From an uncultured Gammaproteobacteria bacterium (GTDB lineage: Bacteria > Patescibacteriota > Patescibacteriia > UBA2591 > UBA6264), in assembly GCA_964507075.1 (NCBI GenBank), contig CAZDOL010000001.1:43201-75200 (forward strand): DNA of 32,000 bases, given 5' to 3'. The notes under the pieces were generated by a model. It searched no databases, was not told the origin of the DNA, and saw nothing but the letters and a program-made list of their open reading frames with translations. Shown here piece by piece: positions 1,817 to 27,846 of this stretch. The first letter of the stretch is position 1. The number at the start of each line of letters is the position of its first letter. The translations under genes were made by a program, and so were the position numbers.

Positions 1817-2755
1817 ATGAAAAAAAATAAACCCCCATTAATAATCATTTGTGGACCAACTGGCTCGGGCAAAAGTTCTCTTGCTTTAAAATTGGCCAAA
1901 GGATGTTCAATAAAAAATCAAAATGTTGAAATTATATCCGCGGACAGCAGGGCTATTTATAAAGGAATGGACATTGGCACTGCCAAGACATTGCCAAGCG
2001 ATAATAACGGAATCACGCATCACATGATTGACATTGTTGACCCAAGTCAAAAATTTACCGTAGCTTTATTTAAAGAAAGGGCCACAAAAATTATTAAAAA
2101 AATCCATCAACAAAAAAGAATACCCTTTCTTGTTGGCGGCACAGGATTATATATCAGCGCCATTGTTGACAACTTAACAATCCCTAAAGTTAAACCAGAT
2201 GAAAAAATCAGAGCTAAAATGGAAAAAGAAATCAATAATAAGGGCCTAGATTTTGTCTGGCAAAAATTATTAAAAATAGATCCACAAGCCAAACACTTTG
2301 TGCAAAAAGAAAATCCTCGTCGAGTGATTAGAGCCATAGAAGTTTGTTTAAAAACAGGACAACCCTTTTCTCAACTACGAACTAAAGCCCAACCAAAATT
2401 TGAAACCCTACAAATCGGCCTTAAAACAGAAAGAACAAAACTATATTCTCAAATTAATCAAAGGGTAGAACAAATGATTAAAAATGGATTAGTGAAAGAA
2501 GTTAGAGAATTGATTAAAAAATATCCCGCATCTAATCCAGGTTTGACCAGCATCGCTTATCAAGAAATCATATTATATCTGGAAAATAAGATTACACTAC
2601 AAGAAGCAATTGATTTAATTAAAAAAAATACGCGCCATTACGCACGTCGTCAAATAACTTGGTTCAAGAAAGATAAACGCATTCATTGGGTTGCTACATA
2701 TTCCCAAGCAAATCAACTAATCAAAAATTTTCTGCTTCACCAATCAAGAAACTGA
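1817..2755 (+). CDS. miaA: tRNA dimethylallyltransferase
   Basis: N-terminal P-loop (IIICGPTGSGKSSLA), SADSRAIYKGMDIGTAK, LVGGTGLY and YARRQITWF. ATG at 1817 is preferred over TTG at 1781 because it places the P-loop at the usual distance from the N-terminus. Confidence 0.9.
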   Translation: MKKNKPPLIIICGPTGSGKSSLALKLAKGCSIKNQNVEIISADSRAIYKGMDIGTAKTLPSDNNGITHHMIDIVDPSQKFTVALFKERATKIIKKIHQQKRIPFLVGGTGLYISAIVDNLTIPKVKPDEKIRAKMEKEINNKGLDFVWQKLLKIDPQAKHFVQKENPRRVIRAIEVCLKTGQPFSQLRTKAQPKFETLQIGLKTERTKLYSQINQRVEQMIKNGLVKEVRELIKKYPASNPGLTSIAYQEIILYLENKITLQEAIDLIKKNTRHYARRQITWFKKDKRIHWVATYSQANQLIKNFLLHQSRN

Positions 2756-2766
2756 ACACCCTAACA

Positions 2767-2797
2767 AAAAGTTTGGACACCGAGTGTCCAAACTTTT
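2767..2797. repeat. REP-like hairpin copy A1 (AAAAGTTTGGACAC-CGA-GTGTCCAAACTTTT); likely bidirectional terminator
   Basis: Perfect 14-bp inverted repeat with a 3-nt loop, A-run before and T-run after on both strands. It sits between the convergent stops of miaA (2755) and the Y1 transposase-like gene (2798). It is identical to the copy at 25305-25335. Confidence 0.8.
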
Positions 2798-3481
2798 CTA
2801 CTCTAATAGAAATCTCTTAATTCGCTTATTTTCCTTTATTCTCTTTAAAGAATCTTTAGCAAACCCTTTATAAGCCTCCGCATTGCCAAATTGGTCCAAT
2901 ACAATATCCTTTTCACAAAAACCTTTCTTATTTCTATTGTTTTTATTAGAATCACTCTCAACGTATTCGTCCCAGCTTGATTTAAAAAGTTCAGTGGCCG
3001 AGCCACTGAACTTTTCTAAATTATGTACCTTATAATTTAAATTAATATAAGTACTTAAGTGCAATAAATATTCATTAGAACCTATATGAATCGCTTGGTA
3101 TTTCCCTTGACACAATGACCCGCTCCGTTTATATTTTTTATTAAAATATTCTGTATATCCAGTGCCTAACCTATGCATAAATTTTTGAATCCCCTTGTCA
3201 ACTAATTGTTTCAAAATAAAATGATAATGATTCGGATTTAAGCAATAACAAACAAAATTAACCAATTTTTTCTTTTTGGAAAGTTCAGTGGCCGAGCCAC
3301 TGAACTTTTTTCTCAATCTCTTTGCTTCATAAATACTATCAATTGGATTCATAGTATTAAATTCTTCCATGCTCAAAAAAAATCTATTTAAATCTTCTTG
3401 GCATTCAAAAATTATACGCTTATCTACTCCACGATTATAGATATGATAATATTCGTCATTAACAAATTTAACTTTTCTCAT
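2798..3481 (-). CDS. IS200/IS605-type Y1 (HUH) transposase-like protein, RayT-like
   Basis: N-terminal YYHIYNRGVDKRIIF, HUH motif in LNPNHYHFIL, and a Tyr-containing C-terminal motif STYINLNY. The gene is flanked on both sides by REP-like hairpins. The ORF is intact despite two internal hairpin copies. Confidence 0.65.
   Translation of the reverse strand: MRKVKFVNDEYYHIYNRGVDKRIIFECQEDLNRFFLSMEEFNTMNPIDSIYEAKRLRKKFSGSATELSKKKKLVNFVCYCLNPNHYHFILKQLVDKGIQKFMHRLGTGYTEYFNKKYKRSGSLCQGKYQAIHIGSNEYLLHLSTYINLNYKVHNLEKFSGSATELFKSSWDEYVESDSNKNNRNKKGFCEKDIVLDQFGNAEAYKGFAKDSLKRIKENKRIKRFLLE
2985..3015. repeat. REP-like hairpin copy B1, inside the Y1 transposase-like ORF (AAAAGTTCAGTGGC-CGA-GCCACTGAACTTTT)
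   Basis: Perfect palindrome read directly. It is translated in-frame on the minus strand as EKFSGSATELF. Confidence 0.8.
3280..3308. repeat. REP-like hairpin copy B2, inside the Y1 transposase-like ORF (AAAGTTCAGTGGC-CGA-GCCACTGAACTTT)
   Basis: Nucleotide-identical core to the copy at 2985-3015. It is translated in the same relative frame as KKFSGSATELS. Confidence 0.8.
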
Positions 3482-3512
3482 ATATATATTTATATCTCTT
3501 TTAAAGACTAAT

Positions 3513-3541
3513 AAAGTTTGGTGACCGAGCCACCAAACTTT
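3513..3541. repeat. REP-like hairpin copy C1 (AAAGTTTGGTGAC-CGA-GCCACCAAACTTT, one A/C mismatch)
   Basis: Inverted repeat abutting the gatB stop (3542) and upstream of the Y1 transposase-like start (3481). Confidence 0.75.
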
Positions 3542-5041
3542 TTATAAAAATTTTGTTAATAACTTCTTGATTAAATCTGGGCTTATTTGCCCTTTTGTTT
3601 TTTTAACTGTTTGGCCTATTAAAAATTGAATGGCATTAGGATGACCCTTTTTGATTTTATCCACTATTTCAGAATTATTTTTAATAACATCTTGAACAAT
3701 AACTTCTATCTTTTCTGATTCAATAATTTCCAGAGAACCAAACTCTAACAACAAAGAGCCAGCATCTTGTCCTGTTTGAAACATTTTTTTCAAAATTTTT
3801 CGACCTAAAATATTAGATAACTTTTTCTGATATATTAAAATAATAAACTCAGTAAAATTTTCACAAGAAACACTGGATTCTTTTTTATTAGATTCTTGTG
3901 AAAAAACTAAATAATAATTGATGAACCAATTGGCAATTAATCTAATTATTTTTTTCTTATTTCTTTGCCATATCTCTGGTTCACTAGCGTCCATTCCTTC
4001 ACAAGAACTAATCCAGTCTTGCATTTTTTTGATAACCTCTTCTATGAAATACAATCGAGTTGGCAATGCAGTCAATATTCTAATTTCATCTTCTGAAAAG
4101 CAATATTTTTTTCGCCAACGCTTCCTTTGCTGAGCTGGCAATTCGGGCAAAGATTTGCTTAATTTTTTAATATCAAATGGAAATTCTTTGGATTTGGTAA
4201 AAAAAACTGGTAGATCTGGCTCCTTAAAATATCTATAATCTTTGGTCTTTTCTTTACTTCTCTGCTCAACTGTAATTCCTTTTTGTGCATCCCAACCACG
4301 CGTTATCTCTATTTTCTGCACTCTGTTATCGCGCCACAGCTCAGTCTGTCTTTTGATTTCATACCTTAGAGCATCTTCTACAGCCTTAAATGAGTTAAGG
4401 TTTTTTATCTCTGTTTTGGGATAAAGATTATCTCCGTTGTTTTCTGGTCTTAAAGAAATGTTGACATCACACCTCATCTGCCCATTTTCCATTTCTGCAT
4501 TGGAAACATTTAATGCCCGAGCTATCTCCTGTAATTCTTGTAAAAAAAATTTAGCCTGAGAAGGACTCTCTATATCCGGTTTAGTTACTATTTCAGCCAA
4601 AGGCACTCCTGCGCGATTAAAATCCAATAAGCTATAACCTTCTTTTGAATGCAGTAATTTAGCAGTATCTTCCTCAATATGTATTCTCTCTAAATTAATT
4701 CTTTGTCCCTTGATGTCCAAATGTCCTCCAATAATTAAAGGAGAATAATATTGACTAATCTGATATCCTTTGGGCAAGTCTGGATAAAAATAATTTTTAC
4801 GATCAAACCAAAAACTTTCCGCTACCTCTCCCTTTAATGCTAACCCTAAAAGCAAAACTTTTTCTATTACTTTTTTGTTTAAAACTGGCAAAACCCCAGG
4901 ATGACCCAGGCAAGTTGGACAAACATTAATGTTGGGTAAAACACCCTGAACCTTATTCAAGCAAGAACAGAATAATTTGCTCTTTGTGTTAAGTTCCAAA
5001 TGAATTTCTAAGCCAATAATAGACTTTAAGTTAAGATGCAT
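3542..5041 (-). CDS. gatB: Asp-tRNA(Asn)/Glu-tRNA(Gln) amidotransferase subunit B
   Basis: IGLEIHLELNTKSKLFCSC, CPTCLGHPGVLP, RKNYFYPDLPKGYQISQ, DFNRAGVPL, CDVNIS and a C-terminal YqeY-like tail. Confidence 0.95.
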   Translation of the reverse strand: MHLNLKSIIGLEIHLELNTKSKLFCSCLNKVQGVLPNINVCPTCLGHPGVLPVLNKKVIEKVLLLGLALKGEVAESFWFDRKNYFYPDLPKGYQISQYYSPLIIGGHLDIKGQRINLERIHIEEDTAKLLHSKEGYSLLDFNRAGVPLAEIVTKPDIESPSQAKFFLQELQEIARALNVSNAEMENGQMRCDVNISLRPENNGDNLYPKTEIKNLNSFKAVEDALRYEIKRQTELWRDNRVQKIEITRGWDAQKGITVEQRSKEKTKDYRYFKEPDLPVFFTKSKEFPFDIKKLSKSLPELPAQQRKRWRKKYCFSEDEIRILTALPTRLYFIEEVIKKMQDWISSCEGMDASEPEIWQRNKKKIIRLIANWFINYYLVFSQESNKKESSVSCENFTEFIILIYQKKLSNILGRKILKKMFQTGQDAGSLLLEFGSLEIIESEKIEVIVQDVIKNNSEIVDKIKKGHPNAIQFLIGQTVKKTKGQISPDLIKKLLTKFL

Positions 5042-23358: not shown

Positions 23359-24288
23359 ATGCCTACTGAAATAAAAAAATTAATCACTGAATTTTTAGAA
23401 TATTTAGAAATTGAAAAAGGTTGCAGTCCTTTAACTATCAGGAATTATGATTTTTATTTGCAAAGATTTGTTAAACAATCTAAAATAAACTCTCCAAAAG
23501 AAATCACCAAAGAAACTGTTAGACAATTCCGCCTTTGGTTATCGCGTTTAAAAAATTATCATCAGGATAATTTATCTTTAGCAACCCGAAACTATCATTT
23601 GATAGCCATTCGTTGTCTTCTTAAATATCTGGCCATTAAAGATATTCCCTCTTTAGCTCCTGAAAAAATTGAACTAGCCAAAACAGGAGAAAGGCAAATA
23701 TCCTTTTTAGAGGGGGATGATTTAGAAAAATTACTTGACGCTCCCCTTCAAGTGAAACAAAAAGAAATTATTACCTATCGCGACAAAGCTATTCTGGAAC
23801 TGCTTTTTTCAACTGGCTTAAGGGTTTCTGAATTAACCAACCTCAAAAAAGAAAACATAAATCTCAAAAAAGATGAATTCAGCATAAAGGGCAAGGGCCA
23901 AAAATGGCGTCTGGTGTTTCTGTCTAACCAAGCCAAATATTGGTTAAAAAAATATTTAGAAAAAAGAACCGACATTGACCCAGCACTTTTTATACGTTAT
24001 GATAGGGCATCAAAAAATAACCAAAAATCACTAGGTATTACTCCTCGTTCTGTCCAAAGATTGGTTCAAAAATATTCTAAAGTTGCCGGCTTAACTCGCA
24101 AAATCAGTGTTCATACTCTTCGGCATAGCTTTGCCACCGACCTATTGTCTGGTGGAGCCAATTTACGAGCAGTTCAAGAATTGTTAGGACATCGAAATAT
24201 AACTACTACTCAAATTTATACTCATGTCACAAATCAACATTTAAGAGAAATATACCAAAATTTTCACGACCAAAAAAGAAAAAAATAA
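23359..24288 (+). CDS. Tyrosine site-specific recombinase, XerC/XerD family
   Basis: N-terminal SAM-like core-binding domain (FLEYLEIEKGCSPLTIRNY) and catalytic region HTLRHSFATDLL...LLGHRNITTTQIYTHV (R-H-R-Y). Confidence 0.85.
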   Translation: MPTEIKKLITEFLEYLEIEKGCSPLTIRNYDFYLQRFVKQSKINSPKEITKETVRQFRLWLSRLKNYHQDNLSLATRNYHLIAIRCLLKYLAIKDIPSLAPEKIELAKTGERQISFLEGDDLEKLLDAPLQVKQKEIITYRDKAILELLFSTGLRVSELTNLKKENINLKKDEFSIKGKGQKWRLVFLSNQAKYWLKKYLEKRTDIDPALFIRYDRASKNNQKSLGITPRSVQRLVQKYSKVAGLTRKISVHTLRHSFATDLLSGGANLRAVQELLGHRNITTTQIYTHVTNQHLREIYQNFHDQKRKK

Positions 24289-24333: not shown

Positions 24334-24372
24334 ATGTTCCTATGTTCTCATGTTCAAATGTTCTCATGATTC
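24334..24372. repeat. Five tandem 8-bp units ATGTTCNN (last unit degenerate)
   Basis: ATGTTCCT ATGTTCTC ATGTTCAA ATGTTCTC ATGATTC, read directly. It lies immediately upstream of the duplicated tRNA-Arg 5' segment. Confidence 0.6.
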
Positions 24373-24374
24373 AT

Positions 24375-24387
24375 GCCCCTATAGTTC
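24375..24387 (+). repeat. 13-nt duplicate of tRNA-Arg positions 1-13 (GCCCCTATAGTTC)
   Basis: Exact match to 24491-24503, the 5' acceptor strand plus U8 A9 and the 5' D-stem strand of the intact tRNA-Arg. Confidence 0.8.
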
Positions 24388-24490
24388 CCTCCTTCGCTCA
24401 AATTTGCATTTGAGCTTCGGAAGGGCAAGCATCAACATTAAAAGGTTTGCTCGCCCATCGAAGCTTCGATGTAAATCGAAGCGTAGTTGG

Positions 24491-24565
24491 GCCCCTATAG
24501 TTCAACGGATAGAACGAGAGACTTCTAATCTCTAGATAGAGGTTCGATTCCTCTTGGGGGTACCA
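24491..24565 (+). tRNA. tRNA-Arg (anticodon UCU), CCA encoded
   Basis: Manual cloverleaf. Acceptor GCCCCTA/TGGGGGT (two G-U pairs). D arm GTTC-AACGGATA-GAAC. Anticodon arm AGAGA-CTTCTAA-TCTCT. T arm AGAGG-TTCGATT-CCTCT. Discriminator A followed by CCA. Confidence 0.9.
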
Positions 24566-24571
24566 TTTCAT

Positions 24572-24609
24572 GGCGGCTATAGTTCAATGGTAGAACAGCG
24601 GATTGTGGG
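24572..24609 (+). pseudogene. Truncated tRNA-His: 5' half only, ending in the anticodon loop
   Basis: G-1, acceptor strand GCGGCTA, TA, D arm GTTC-AATGGTA-GAAC, A, anticodon stem strand GCGGA, loop TTGTGGG (GUG). No TCCGC strand, no canonical T arm and no TAGCCGC acceptor strand follow in the next ~800 nt. Confidence 0.7.
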
Positions 24610-24629
24610 TTTATCCACAGCACGATGTT

Positions 24630-24658
24630 TTGACATCTATATAAAATTAGGCTATAAT
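24630..24658 (+). promoter_or_regulatory. Perfect consensus sigma70 promoter (TTGACA-17-TATAAT) driving the HNH gene, probably leaderless
   Basis: TTGACA at 24630-24635, an exactly 17-nt spacer, and TATAAT at 24653-24658. Seven nt (AGTAACC) separate the -10 element from the ATG at 24666, so the expected transcription start is about at the A of the ATG. Confidence 0.6.
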
Positions 24659-24665
24659 AGTAACC

Positions 24666-25142
24666 ATGCCTTATGTTAGATGTAAAATCTGTGATAAAAA
24701 ATTCTACACCAAGCCATCGTACTTAAAACTTGGTTGGGGAAAATATTGCTCAATAAAATGTAAACGCATAGCCCAGTTAAAGGGGAAATTTGTAAAATGT
24801 CATACTTGCGGCAAAAAGACATGGAAAGCTCCCAAAGCATTGAAGCATTCAAAAAGCGGGAATTTCTTTTGTTGTAAATCATGTCAAACCATATGGAGGA
24901 ATCAATATTATTCTGGACCAAAACATCCTAATTGGAAAGGCGGAGAACATAGGCAATATAGAAAAATATTGCTTAAAAATGGCAAAACACCAGTTTGTCA
25001 AATCTGTGGACTAAAAGATAAAAGAGTGCTTATAGCACATCATAAAGATAGAAACCGAAAAAATCAGACCATTGAAAATCTTATATGGTTATGTTTAAAC
25101 TGTCATCACCTAGTGCATCATTACAATAAATCTATCCATTAA
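24666..25142 (+). CDS. HNH endonuclease with two N-terminal zinc-ribbon-like repeats
   Basis: CKICDKKF...CSIKC and CHTCGKKT...CCKSC repeats, then the HNH core CQICG...IAHHKDRNRKNQTIENLIWLCLNCHHLVHH. Confidence 0.85.
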   Translation: MPYVRCKICDKKFYTKPSYLKLGWGKYCSIKCKRIAQLKGKFVKCHTCGKKTWKAPKALKHSKSGNFFCCKSCQTIWRNQYYSGPKHPNWKGGEHRQYRKILLKNGKTPVCQICGLKDKRVLIAHHKDRNRKNQTIENLIWLCLNCHHLVHHYNKSIH

Positions 25143-25153
25143 TAATTATTATG

Positions 25154-25228
25154 GCGACCTTGGTGTAGGAGTAGCACAAAAGCCTGTGGAGCTTTCGGCA
25201 GGGGTGCAAATCCCCTAGGTCGCCCCAT
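25154..25228 (+). tRNA. tRNA-His (anticodon GUG) with encoded G-1 and CCA; atypical T-loop
   Basis: G-1 pairs with C73. Acceptor GCGACCT/AGGTCGC. D arm GTGT-AGGAGTA-GCAC. Anticodon arm AAAGC-CTGTGGA-GCTTT. T arm AGGGG-TGCAAAT-CCCCT has G where the near-universal U55 is expected. Confidence 0.85.
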
Positions 25229-25229
25229 A

Positions 25230-25258
25230 AAAACATCTCTTTTTTAGAGGTGTTTTTG
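25230..25258 (+). terminator. Intrinsic terminator after tRNA-His
   Basis: AAAAACATCTC-TTTTTTA-GAGGTGTTTTT, with a T-run after the stem. Confidence 0.6.
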
Positions 25259-25303: not shown

Positions 25304-25336
25304 AAAAAGTTTGGACACCGAGTGTCCAAACTTTTT
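25304..25336. repeat. REP-like hairpin copy A2 (identical to 2767-2797); likely bidirectional terminator
   Basis: AAAAAGTTTGGACAC-CGA-GTGTCCAAACTTTTT lies between the convergent tRNA-His cluster and the stop of the 25359 gene. Confidence 0.8.
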
Positions 25337-27002: not shown

Positions 27003-27803
27003 TTAATTTCTAAACTTTTTAATTATCAAAATAATTAAAATTATTCCCAAAAATATAGCGCTAACTATAAAATATGGTTTCAAAGATTCAAAATTAATAA
27101 CACGAGTATGGCCTGAACCTTCTAAAGTTAAAAATCCTAAACTTGCTTGTGGCAAAATATCGGGTTCAATTGCAATAAAATTAATGTCTTGGTCGCTACG
27201 GGGCAAAAGCCTTAACTCATCATTGCTTTGATTTAATATCCCTATGATTTCTAAATTATCTCCCTCTTGAATAATCCCTTTGTTAATTTTTGCGTATTCT
27301 TTAATATAAATTGTTATCTCTGATTGCCCGTTGCTGATAAAAATCCGCGAACCAGTTCTTTCTATAACCTCACCCTGAATCTTGAGCAATTTACCAACCA
27401 AACTATAATTAATCTCTTTAATCTCAACTACTTGTGGCTCAATTATCAACTGGCGCTCCAAAATTCCAATATCCTCTTGGCTTTTAATATTAATTCTCTT
27501 TTCTTCTCTTGCTTGAGAAACAACACCCTGAACTGCAATTTTATCACCTCTTTTTAATTTTGGAAAATCTTTGTAATAGGAGTAAATTTGAACTCCATTA
27601 ATATAAAAAAACTGGAGTCCTAAAACCCCAGGTTCAACTATTACTATTCCTTCTGTTTTAACCGTTCTGCCAACATCTAATTCTTTAATGTTCTCTGGCG
27701 AAACATATTGAAAATCAACGGCAAAAACTTGATTACAAAATATTAAAAATATCAACAAGAAAACAAAAAAACCAACAATTCTTATTTTTTTAATATTTGT
27801 CAT
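27003..27803 (-). CDS. Membrane-anchored hypothetical protein with two OB-fold-like segments
   Basis: N-terminal signal peptide (cleavage-like VFA-VD) and a C-terminal TM helix with a basic tail (IILIILIIKKFRN). Two internal segments with an OB-like pattern are present (GRTVKTEGIVIVEPG...GDKIAVQGVV and GKLLKIQGEVIERTG...GDNLEIIGIL). The fold call is an impression only. Confidence 0.5.
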   Translation of the reverse strand: MTNIKKIRIVGFFVFLLIFLIFCNQVFAVDFQYVSPENIKELDVGRTVKTEGIVIVEPGVLGLQFFYINGVQIYSYYKDFPKLKRGDKIAVQGVVSQAREEKRINIKSQEDIGILERQLIIEPQVVEIKEINYSLVGKLLKIQGEVIERTGSRIFISNGQSEITIYIKEYAKINKGIIQEGDNLEIIGILNQSNDELRLLPRSDQDINFIAIEPDILPQASLGFLTLEGSGHTRVINFESLKPYFIVSAIFLGIILIILIIKKFRN

Positions 27804-27821: not shown

Positions 27822-27846
27822 TTTTTGGAGACTTAGTCTCCAAAAA
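27822..27846. other. Hairpin TTTTTGGAGAC-TTA-GTCTCCAAAAA between the giant gene and the next gene; possible weak terminator
   Basis: 11-bp inverted repeat read directly. On the minus strand it is followed only by GUUUUC, so a terminator function is uncertain. Confidence 0.35.

Follow-up and report, generated by a model that had tools for sequence, protein, structure and literature searches.

The window analysed here, a stretch of DNA of 32,000 nucleotides (nt), carries at positions 2767-3541 a 775-bp unit that is bounded by hairpins and lies between the convergent genes gatB and miaA. The unit very probably encodes a RAYT-like Y1/HUH single-stranded DNA nuclease together with four copies of a short perfect palindrome, most likely the recognition hairpin of that enzyme. 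One copy stands upstream of the gene (UP), one downstream (DOWN), and two are translated in frame within it (S1 and S2). The same four sites were found around related genes of Patescibacteria, where their positions and codon register are constant and the sequence of the palindrome changes in concert within each unit.

The Y1 gene occupies 2798-3481 on the minus strand, and its open reading frame (ORF) of 227 amino acids (aa) was assigned to the RayT-like, class 2 TnpA-Y1 proteins. Pfam Y1_Tnp (PF01797) matched residues 58-147 with 30.9 bits against a cut-off of 23, and no other Pfam family matched the protein at E <= 0.1. The HYH motif (3221-3229) and the catalytic-tyrosine motif YINLN (3035-3049) were located by motif match. 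H85-Y-H87 and Y145 are invariant in three alignments (A1, A4, A5), with a single catalytic Tyr on a helix, and the HuH-Y distance in the window protein is 60 aa. The motifs of this protein read NHYH / F124-Q125 / YINLN / S168-S169. At the Y motif, for which the class 2 pattern is Y---NP, the window protein has YINLNY, with the N present and the P absent, and distant members of the family have YIHLNP or YINLNP. The NCBIfam equivalog REP_Tyr_transpos was not reached by the protein (20.3 bits against a cut-off of 80).

Structure prediction with AlphaFold (AF2) required an alignment of 138 sequences, from which a model with a predicted local distance difference test score (pLDDT) of 80.9 was obtained; an alignment of 30 sequences gave an unusable model (pLDDT 51.7). 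The top Foldseek match of the model in the PDB was 4er8_A, the E. coli RayT with a repetitive extragenic palindromic (REP) hairpin (E 4.8e-4), followed by the TnpA proteins of IS608 and ISDra2. A profile search of PDB sequences with the family found no relative, so that only fold comparison makes the connection. The earlier note on this DNA had described a RayT-like Y1 gene bracketed by palindromes, with the same hairpin family in frame inside it, and this reading is supported. The ratio of nonsynonymous to synonymous rates (dN/dS) is 0.13-0.25 among seven syntenic orthologues, at dS values of 0.15-1.4. The gene is therefore not a pseudogene, which disposes of a possibility that would have undone the note's reading. 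By this measure and by its conserved synteny, the gene is kept by purifying selection and is vertically inherited.

The four hairpins, palindromes to which no strand applies, were placed as follows. UP (AAAGTTTGGTGACCGAGCCACCAAACTTT) lies at 3513-3541, directly after the gatB stop and 31 nt before the ATG of the Y1 gene. S1 (3280-3308) and S2 (2985-3015) are both read in frame as KFSGSATEL, at residues 59-67 and 157-165 respectively, S1 in the loop that joins helix A to strand beta2 and precedes the HUH motif, and S2 between the tyrosine helix and the SSW motif. DOWN (AAAAGTTTGGACACCGAGTGTCCAAACTTTT) occupies 2767-2797, abuts the Y1 stop and is 11 nt away from the convergent miaA stop. An exact 29-mer, AAAGTTCAGTGGCCGAGCCACTGAACTTT, is present twice, at 2986-3014 and at 3280-3308, with 0 occurrences expected in shuffles. 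The gene, its flanking hairpins and the two KFSGSATEL copies were thus found just where the note had put them, by ORF analysis, exact 29-mer search and translation. The degenerate pattern AAAGTT-N6-CCGAG-N6-AACTTT occurs at five sites in the window against 0.27 expected, always with CCGAG on the plus strand. Folded as single-stranded DNA, the window hairpins have free energies of -10.8 to -15.2 kcal/mol (z -7.0 to -8.6). In the AF2 model the S1 peptide coincides with a low-confidence segment (residues 61-69), which links helix A to the beta2-beta3 HUH hairpin. The S2 peptide, modelled with moderate confidence, follows the catalytic-Tyr helix and precedes the conserved SSW motif of the tail.

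The distribution of these sites was studied across the family. The search for relatives of the Y1 protein yielded 4,159 sequences at E <= 0.001 in a collection clustered at 90% identity; when clustered at 50% identity, the relatives with E <= 1e-30 form 202 clusters. Among the 120 matches listed, the organism names given by the source are all Patescibacteria, Parcubacteria or "bacterium". Seventy-nine genomic loci (numbered with the prefix L) were fetched, and hairpins were mapped around 74 gene copies from Patescibacteria genomes, which cover about 50-99% protein identity. The record titles of L001, L004-L008 and other third-party-annotation metagenome-assembled genomes name Gammaproteobacteria, Bdellovibrionales, Saccharibacteria or Woesearchaeota, and these loci carry the Patescibacteria-type gene and hairpins. 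The deposited taxonomic labels of these records are probably unreliable.

A hairpin was present at the UP site, which starts about 46 nt before the ATG, in 66 of the 74 genes; at S1 (about nt +175, codon ~60) in 50; at S2 (about nt +450 to +475, codon ~155) in 55; and at DOWN, about 5 nt past the stop, in 57. The complete set of four was found in 30/74 genes, and UP and DOWN of one gene usually have the same core. In 50/50 S1 and 55/55 S2 copies (105/105) the palindrome is centred on codon position 2. This register is not forced by avoidance of stops, because the conserved arms of the palindrome are free of stop codons in every frame. The invariant register at both sites points to two ancient sites at which the sequence is renewed in place. 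As judged from its occurrence in these genes, the four-site layout is ancestral to a large clade of Patescibacteria. At the peptide level the palindrome signal fades below about 45-50% identity among distant representatives, and the clade boundary of the feature is not sharp. Paired inverted or fused double palindromes, resembling REPIN dimers, were seen at both UP and DOWN in L037, L028 and L030 and at UP in L081.

In an alignment of 30 homologues, a short variable peptide stands at both places in every sequence, and the two peptides of one protein are alike. Distant homologues that have no hairpins carry loops of similar length at the S1 and S2 positions. The palindromes therefore fill variable loops that already existed and are not clean insertions of 10 aa. 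The recent insertion of an element, which the identical 29-mers had suggested in the earlier note, does not agree with the presence of S1 in 50 and S2 in 55 of the genes, with the invariant register or with these loops. Its related point, whether homologues have the same peptide segments, is answered in two parts: segments do stand at the same positions, but each encodes the hairpin variant of its own genome.

To follow the palindrome itself, 33-mers aligned on their centres, free of gaps, were compared at S1 (alignment A2) and S2 (alignment A3). TTGG and CCAA, 11 nt apart, are near-invariant at both. Double changes were observed at 10 of 11 stem pairs. The compensatory cells number 116 and 105, where shuffles give about 30 and 0/500 shuffles reach the observed level; in slid controls the covariation collapsed. 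The outer stem of S2 covaries as well, for example CACC..GGTG against CATC..GATG, where one arm changes synonymously and the other non-synonymously. Very few G-T pairs were seen in the stems of S1 and S2, and the constraint fits DNA better than RNA because such pairs are rare. Judged from these alignments, the palindrome constraint inside the coding sequence is a DNA-level one.

Copies within one unit resemble each other far more than copies of different units. Arm identity is 87% within units against 64% between them, and the arms are fully identical in 64% against 3.8% of comparisons. Within-unit identity is >= 0.77 over alignment columns 6-28 (>= 0.84 over 6-27), which correspond to the 23-nt palindrome ACTTGG-N11-CCAAGT, and drops to background from the very next base on either side. 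Ordinary homologous conversion is unsupported, since no homology flanks the element. With solo copies included, the shared element is 23 nt in general and 29 nt in the clade of the window. The extragenic copies have the feet C[CT]AC...GT[GA]G, GTGA and GTAA, and the intragenic copies have CAAC...GTTG. In the fixed register three of the common extragenic 3' feet, GTGA, GTAG and GTAA, would read AAG-TGA, AAG-TAG and AAG-TAA.

The syntenic orthologues have different hairpin cores, and exchange between sites is seen in them. The core GGACAC, which in the window belongs to DOWN and to a solo copy, occupies all four slots in L087. The core CAGTGG of S1 and S2 in the window is that of the DOWN hairpin in L081. 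L018 and L040 are paralogues in one genome, and S2 of one bears the core type that belongs to its partner. Among 180 site pairs with a common stem, 56 have a flipped loop. On these comparisons, only the sequence of the palindrome turns over and the site positions are old, and the pattern is one of concerted evolution limited to the element, with swapping between slots and flipping of loops.

The family palindromes are concentrated at Y1 genes. In total 219 were found in Y1 units, and the flanks, about 1 Mb in all, contain 67 solo copies. A 0.75-kb unit holds about 3-4 copies and the flanks 0.04-0.07 solo copies per kb, an enrichment of about 100-fold at Y1 genes, as the reading in the earlier note requires. 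Twenty-two solo copies lie inside other long ORFs. In non-Y1 ORFs the codon register is mixed (10, 7 and 4 over the three positions), unlike the fixed register of the Y1 genes. Family palindromes within very long ORFs, of up to 2,882 aa, were noted at L015 (7657), L024 (4217) and L032 (665, 2282, 5677, 7741 and 7831).

Close relatives of the window were recovered from metagenomes by anchoring on gatB, and the history of the unit was traced in them. The gene order RNaseH / Bac_transf / gatB / Y1 / miaA / PrsW / miaB is shared with relatives in which the Y1 protein is 72-76% and the neighbouring proteins are 79-93% identical. The gatB/miaA site holds a Y1 unit in L087, L091 and L095. It is empty in L084 (2340-2420) and L085 (2255-2330), where the stops of gatB and miaA abut within a few nt and no palindrome is present. 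Both flanking hairpins thus belong to the Y1 unit and not to the neighbouring genes, because they are missing from the empty sites. Spacers of 75-82 nt without a hairpin are found in L086, L090 and L092. What is left in L088 (4498-4713) and L089 (3475-3731) is an N-terminal Y1 fragment of 42 aa with a degenerate hairpin, a unit in decay. In two outgroups, whose gatB is 51% identical to that of the window, the site is empty. From these present, empty and decayed sites, the whole unit from hairpin to hairpin is a block that is either present or absent. Loss of the unit is proven only by the decayed remnant in L088 and L089; a neighbour-joining tree of gatB, built to tell ancestral empty sites from losses, had bootstrap values of 19-72%. 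No near-identical Y1 copies were seen among the fetched loci, and paralogues within a genome are divergent.

The sequence around the UP hairpin was compared for signals of expression. A TAnnnT hexamer ends 5-8 nt before the ATG in 48/74 genes, against 6.9% at random positions, which suggests that the mRNAs of the Y1 family are leaderless. The spacing TTGGnn-17 nt-TAnnnT-N6-ATG was found at 19 of 61 UP hairpins, where TTGGnn is the left arm of the hairpin, often as CCAAGTGGTATAAT-N6-ATG. At L060, L034, L021, L027, L031 and about 15 further loci, the 40 nt upstream of the ATG read [TTGG-N11-CCAA]GTGGTATAAT-N6-ATG. In this arrangement a -35-like TTGGnn and an extended -10 enclose the hairpin, which implies a leaderless mRNA. 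In the window itself, the 31-nt spacer between UP and the ATG (3482-3512, minus strand) is AT-rich and has a -10-like TATAAA 7 nt before the ATG. The Y1 gene of the window may have a leaderless start, for which this signal is weak. The UP hairpin of the window resembles a minus-strand terminator (free energy as single-stranded DNA -10.8, z -8.1).

These results suggest a mechanism in which the palindrome would be the substrate of the Y1 enzyme. The enzyme would bind the hairpins in single-stranded DNA, cut at the conserved feet and rejoin, thereby exchanging the element among existing sites. Such cutting and rejoining between existing slots would account for the flips, for the sharp edges and for the constancy of site, length and frame. 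Continual renewal and a place in permissive loops would allow the intragenic copies to persist. Along with the copy upstream, which many relatives have between the -35 and -10 of a putative leaderless promoter, they would probably let the protein damp its own expression by negative feedback. The promoter-like -35 and -10 around the UP hairpin in relatives are consistent with such autoregulation. We hold this mechanism, that is hairpin exchange by the enzyme and autoregulation, only tentatively, at somewhat less than an even chance. Identity of the unit and mechanism taken together, it is the best overall explanation, which we favour with moderate confidence. A wider view is doubtful: a phylum-scale family of domesticated Y1 nucleases might use their own gene as a fixed four-slot scaffold for the recognition hairpin. 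The enzyme would swap a 23-nt palindromic cassette, possibly the smallest known mobile unit, between slots of which two are translated loops bracketing the catalytic core. Gene, promoter and substrate would then co-evolve as a self-regulating module.

Several observations weigh against the reading of the unit as an enzyme gene with its own substrate. Binding, cleavage and autoregulation by the Y1 protein are all inferred from sequence. Solo copies are few, so that the REP "population" in about 1 Mb of flanks is thin. REPs carry a 5' GT[AG]G, which the window family lacks, its GTRG being on the 3' side within the stem. Both internal hairpins are absent from seven genes that retain UP and DOWN, and are therefore dispensable in some lineages. 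In the window, UP overlaps no convincing promoter; the canonical TAnnnT is missing there and only the weak TATAAA is present. All window copies at the Y1 unit have the form A-tract / stem / T-tract, which is terminator-like. Compensation in the stems could conceivably arise without selection, through correction of quasi-palindromes by template switching. The detection of hairpins required strict Watson-Crick pairing, which inflates the percentage paired and deflates the counts of G-T pairs. All the sequences are metagenome-assembled and were sampled up to 10 kb on either side of each Y1 gene.

Four other explanations were weighed. The unit could be an active or recently active IS200-like insertion sequence, with UP and DOWN as its subterminal hairpins at the left and right ends and the internal ones incidental. 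Its size of 775 bp and its hairpin boundaries are those of IS200, it comes and goes as a block (the empty L084, L085 and outgroup sites, the remnants in L088 and L089), and in many relatives a promoter stands beside the upstream hairpin, as at the ends of insertion sequences. This account leaves unexplained the long syntenic residence of orthologues at one chromosomal site, under the dS and dN/dS values given above. Near-identical copies were not seen and paralogues within a genome diverge. The Y motif resembles that of class 2 (Y...N; distant members have NP) rather than the Y...Q of IS200, and movement of the palindrome by itself is indicated by the solo hairpins and by those within the ORFs of other genes. 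An IS200-like element is thus unlikely. We are more sceptical of the proposal that the hairpins are host regulatory structures, bidirectional terminators or attenuators, that are unrelated to Y1 activity and have been made alike by generic gene conversion or palindrome correction. The A-tract / stem / T-tract form of all the window copies agrees with it, as do the location of UP after the gatB stop, of DOWN between convergent stops and of a solo copy after tRNA-His, and the UUUUU directly after the S2 hairpin on the mRNA. It does not explain the ~100-fold enrichment at Y1 genes. Moreover, identity stops at the edges of the element without flanking homology, unlike RecA-type conversion, compensation restricted to Watson-Crick pairs points to DNA and not to RNA, and no Rfam family was found above threshold. 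A pure terminator reading was considered insufficient, since GC-richer clades keep the same four sites without U-tracts.

The remaining two are contradicted by the family-wide data. That this gene recently received two in-frame insertions of a mobile hairpin, as a one-off collateral event, could be argued from the nucleotide identity of the two 29-mers, from the 22 family palindromes in other long ORFs and from the known in-frame insertions of REPs and Rickettsia palindromic elements (RPEs) (PMC3733652). The same two sites and register recur in 105/105 intragenic copies among the 74 genes, hairpin-less distant homologues already have loops of similar length there, and neither 23 nor 29 nt is a multiple of three, so that a simple insertion would break the frame. 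Such an event is very unlikely. A functional protein motif in the repeated peptide (KFSGSATEL and related forms), with the DNA palindrome as its by-product, is scarcely credible. The two peptides of one protein are indeed alike in most homologues, but they differ freely among homologues (FGHRVSK, LRSSASQ, LGGSAA and others) and loop flips alter their residues. In the CACC..GGTG and CATC..GATG stems a synonymous change on one arm is paired with a non-synonymous one on the other; the same palindromes occur outside the ORF, and S1 is predicted to be disordered.

Elsewhere in the window two solo palindromes were located, again without a strand. The one at 25304-25336 (pattern 25306-25334) is the same as the DOWN copy and lies between tRNA-His and a convergent ORF. 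The tRNA gene (25154-25227) lies about 77 nt upstream of it, and the convergent ORF, whose 493-aa product had no Pfam match, ends about 22 nt away; the palindrome resembles a bidirectional terminator. The other, at 27822-27846, is of the general type TTGG-N11-CCAA (TTTTTGGAGACTTAGTCTCCAAAAA) with a different core, a pattern that recurs in hairpins at other loci. Its core was not seen at the Y1 gene, and the palindrome stands just upstream of where ORF 27003-27803 (minus strand; DUF5689 / OB-fold-like) begins. A search of Rfam with region 2400-3900 gave only sub-threshold chance matches. S1 and S2 form direct repeats of 29 bp that are 294 bp (98 codons) apart, and a slipped-strand deletion between them would excise the whole HUH-Tyr core in frame. 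Between tRNA-Arg and tRNA-His is a Cys-rich ORF of 158 aa (24666-25142) with a borderline match to an HNH endonuclease (21.0 bits against a cut-off of 21.4), and just upstream of it is a gene for a Xer-like tyrosine recombinase (23359-24288). Region 24350-25230 may be a small mobile or homing module.

The findings bear on the role of RAYTs for their hosts and on how REP-type hairpins spread and stay uniform. They offer a compact natural test system, with the presumed substrate at four defined places in and around the gene of the enzyme, in tiny genomes with few other copies. Because the sites are defined, the concerted turnover is sharp to the nucleotide and other copies are few, the co-evolution of enzyme and hairpin, the mapping of cleavage sites and the possible autoregulation are directly testable. 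A strict DNA-palindrome constraint can persist in translated sequence over long evolutionary distances, and gene annotation and analyses of selection should allow for such constraint within coding sequence.

Among known systems, the Rickettsia palindromic elements and the intragenic REPs provide the precedent for palindromic repeats in frame within functional genes (De Nocera et al. 2013, PMC3733652). The likeness extends to the family palindromes found here in other long ORFs. Those elements are scattered in unrelated genes, whereas here two sites are conserved family-wide and the host gene is that of the presumed cognate enzyme. IS200, of the IS200/IS605 family, is alike in its size of about 0.7 kb, its single Y1 gene, the hairpins at its two ends and its presence or absence as a block. 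Its upstream hairpin can terminate transcription and adjoins the promoter, a further likeness to the UP hairpin of the family. The window family differs in having no Y...Q and no multiple identical copies, in its long syntenic residence under purifying selection, and in its intragenic and solo hairpins.

Bertels et al. 2017 (PMC5581495) describe RAYTs as housekeeping-like genes of low copy number that are inherited vertically. The RayT REPtron of E. coli (PDB 4ER8) is alike in its low-copy, vertical Y1 gene bracketed by cognate hairpins that are also found elsewhere in the genome, but its protein has only 9% sequence identity with the window protein in the structural alignment. The REPs of E. 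coli number hundreds and carry a 5' GTAG. We know of no intragenic REP copies reported for the E. coli RayT subclass. By motif the window protein comes close to the subclass 2.1 TnpA-Y1 proteins (Bertels group 1; TIRYT), whose NH[YF]H, FQ, Y[IV]HLN(P) and SS tail it matches by eye (Table 1, PMC6006769). Subclass 2.1 also shares the length of about 230 aa and flanking repeats of low abundance. No REP-like hairpins are found near subclass 2.1 genes according to Quentin et al. (PMC6006769), and many of these proteins have a C-terminal helix-turn-helix-like domain (Bac_DnaA_C / HTH_23 / HTH_28), for which the window protein has no Pfam match.

The nearest parallel to the arrangement is subclass 2.4 TnpAREP (Bertels group 4 RAYT), alike in a Y1/HUH gene that is flanked by its own palindromes and has further copies in the ORF without a break in frame. 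A RayT-like gene colonised in frame by its own hairpins was thought in the earlier note to be undescribed. Quentin, Siguier, Chandler and Fichant reported in 2018 in-frame REPs inside subclass 2.4 tnpAREP genes, termed them a "unique feature" and "remarkable", and read the insertions as tolerated peripheral loops (PMC6006769). In subclass 2.4 the insertion is in the beta3-alphaC loop between HuH and Y and enlarges the HuH-Y distance; in the window protein this distance is 60 aa, with S1 before beta2 and S2 after the Tyr helix. The motifs are NH[IFV]H / WQ / YIxNNP in subclass 2.4 and NHYH / FQ / YINLN in the window protein (Table 1, PMC6006769), and the window family further differs in its Patescibacteria hosts and in having no GT[AG]G tag. 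No description of this Patescibacteria Y1 family turned up in full-text searches covering REPtron and TnpAREP, and RAYT together with Patescibacteria. In-gene REPs as such are already known, and what appears to be new is the layout of two fixed sites in fixed register with concerted turnover. Compared with subclass 2.4, the window family has two fixed sites outside the HuH-Y interval, an element of fixed length, a fixed codon register and concerted turnover with sharp edges.

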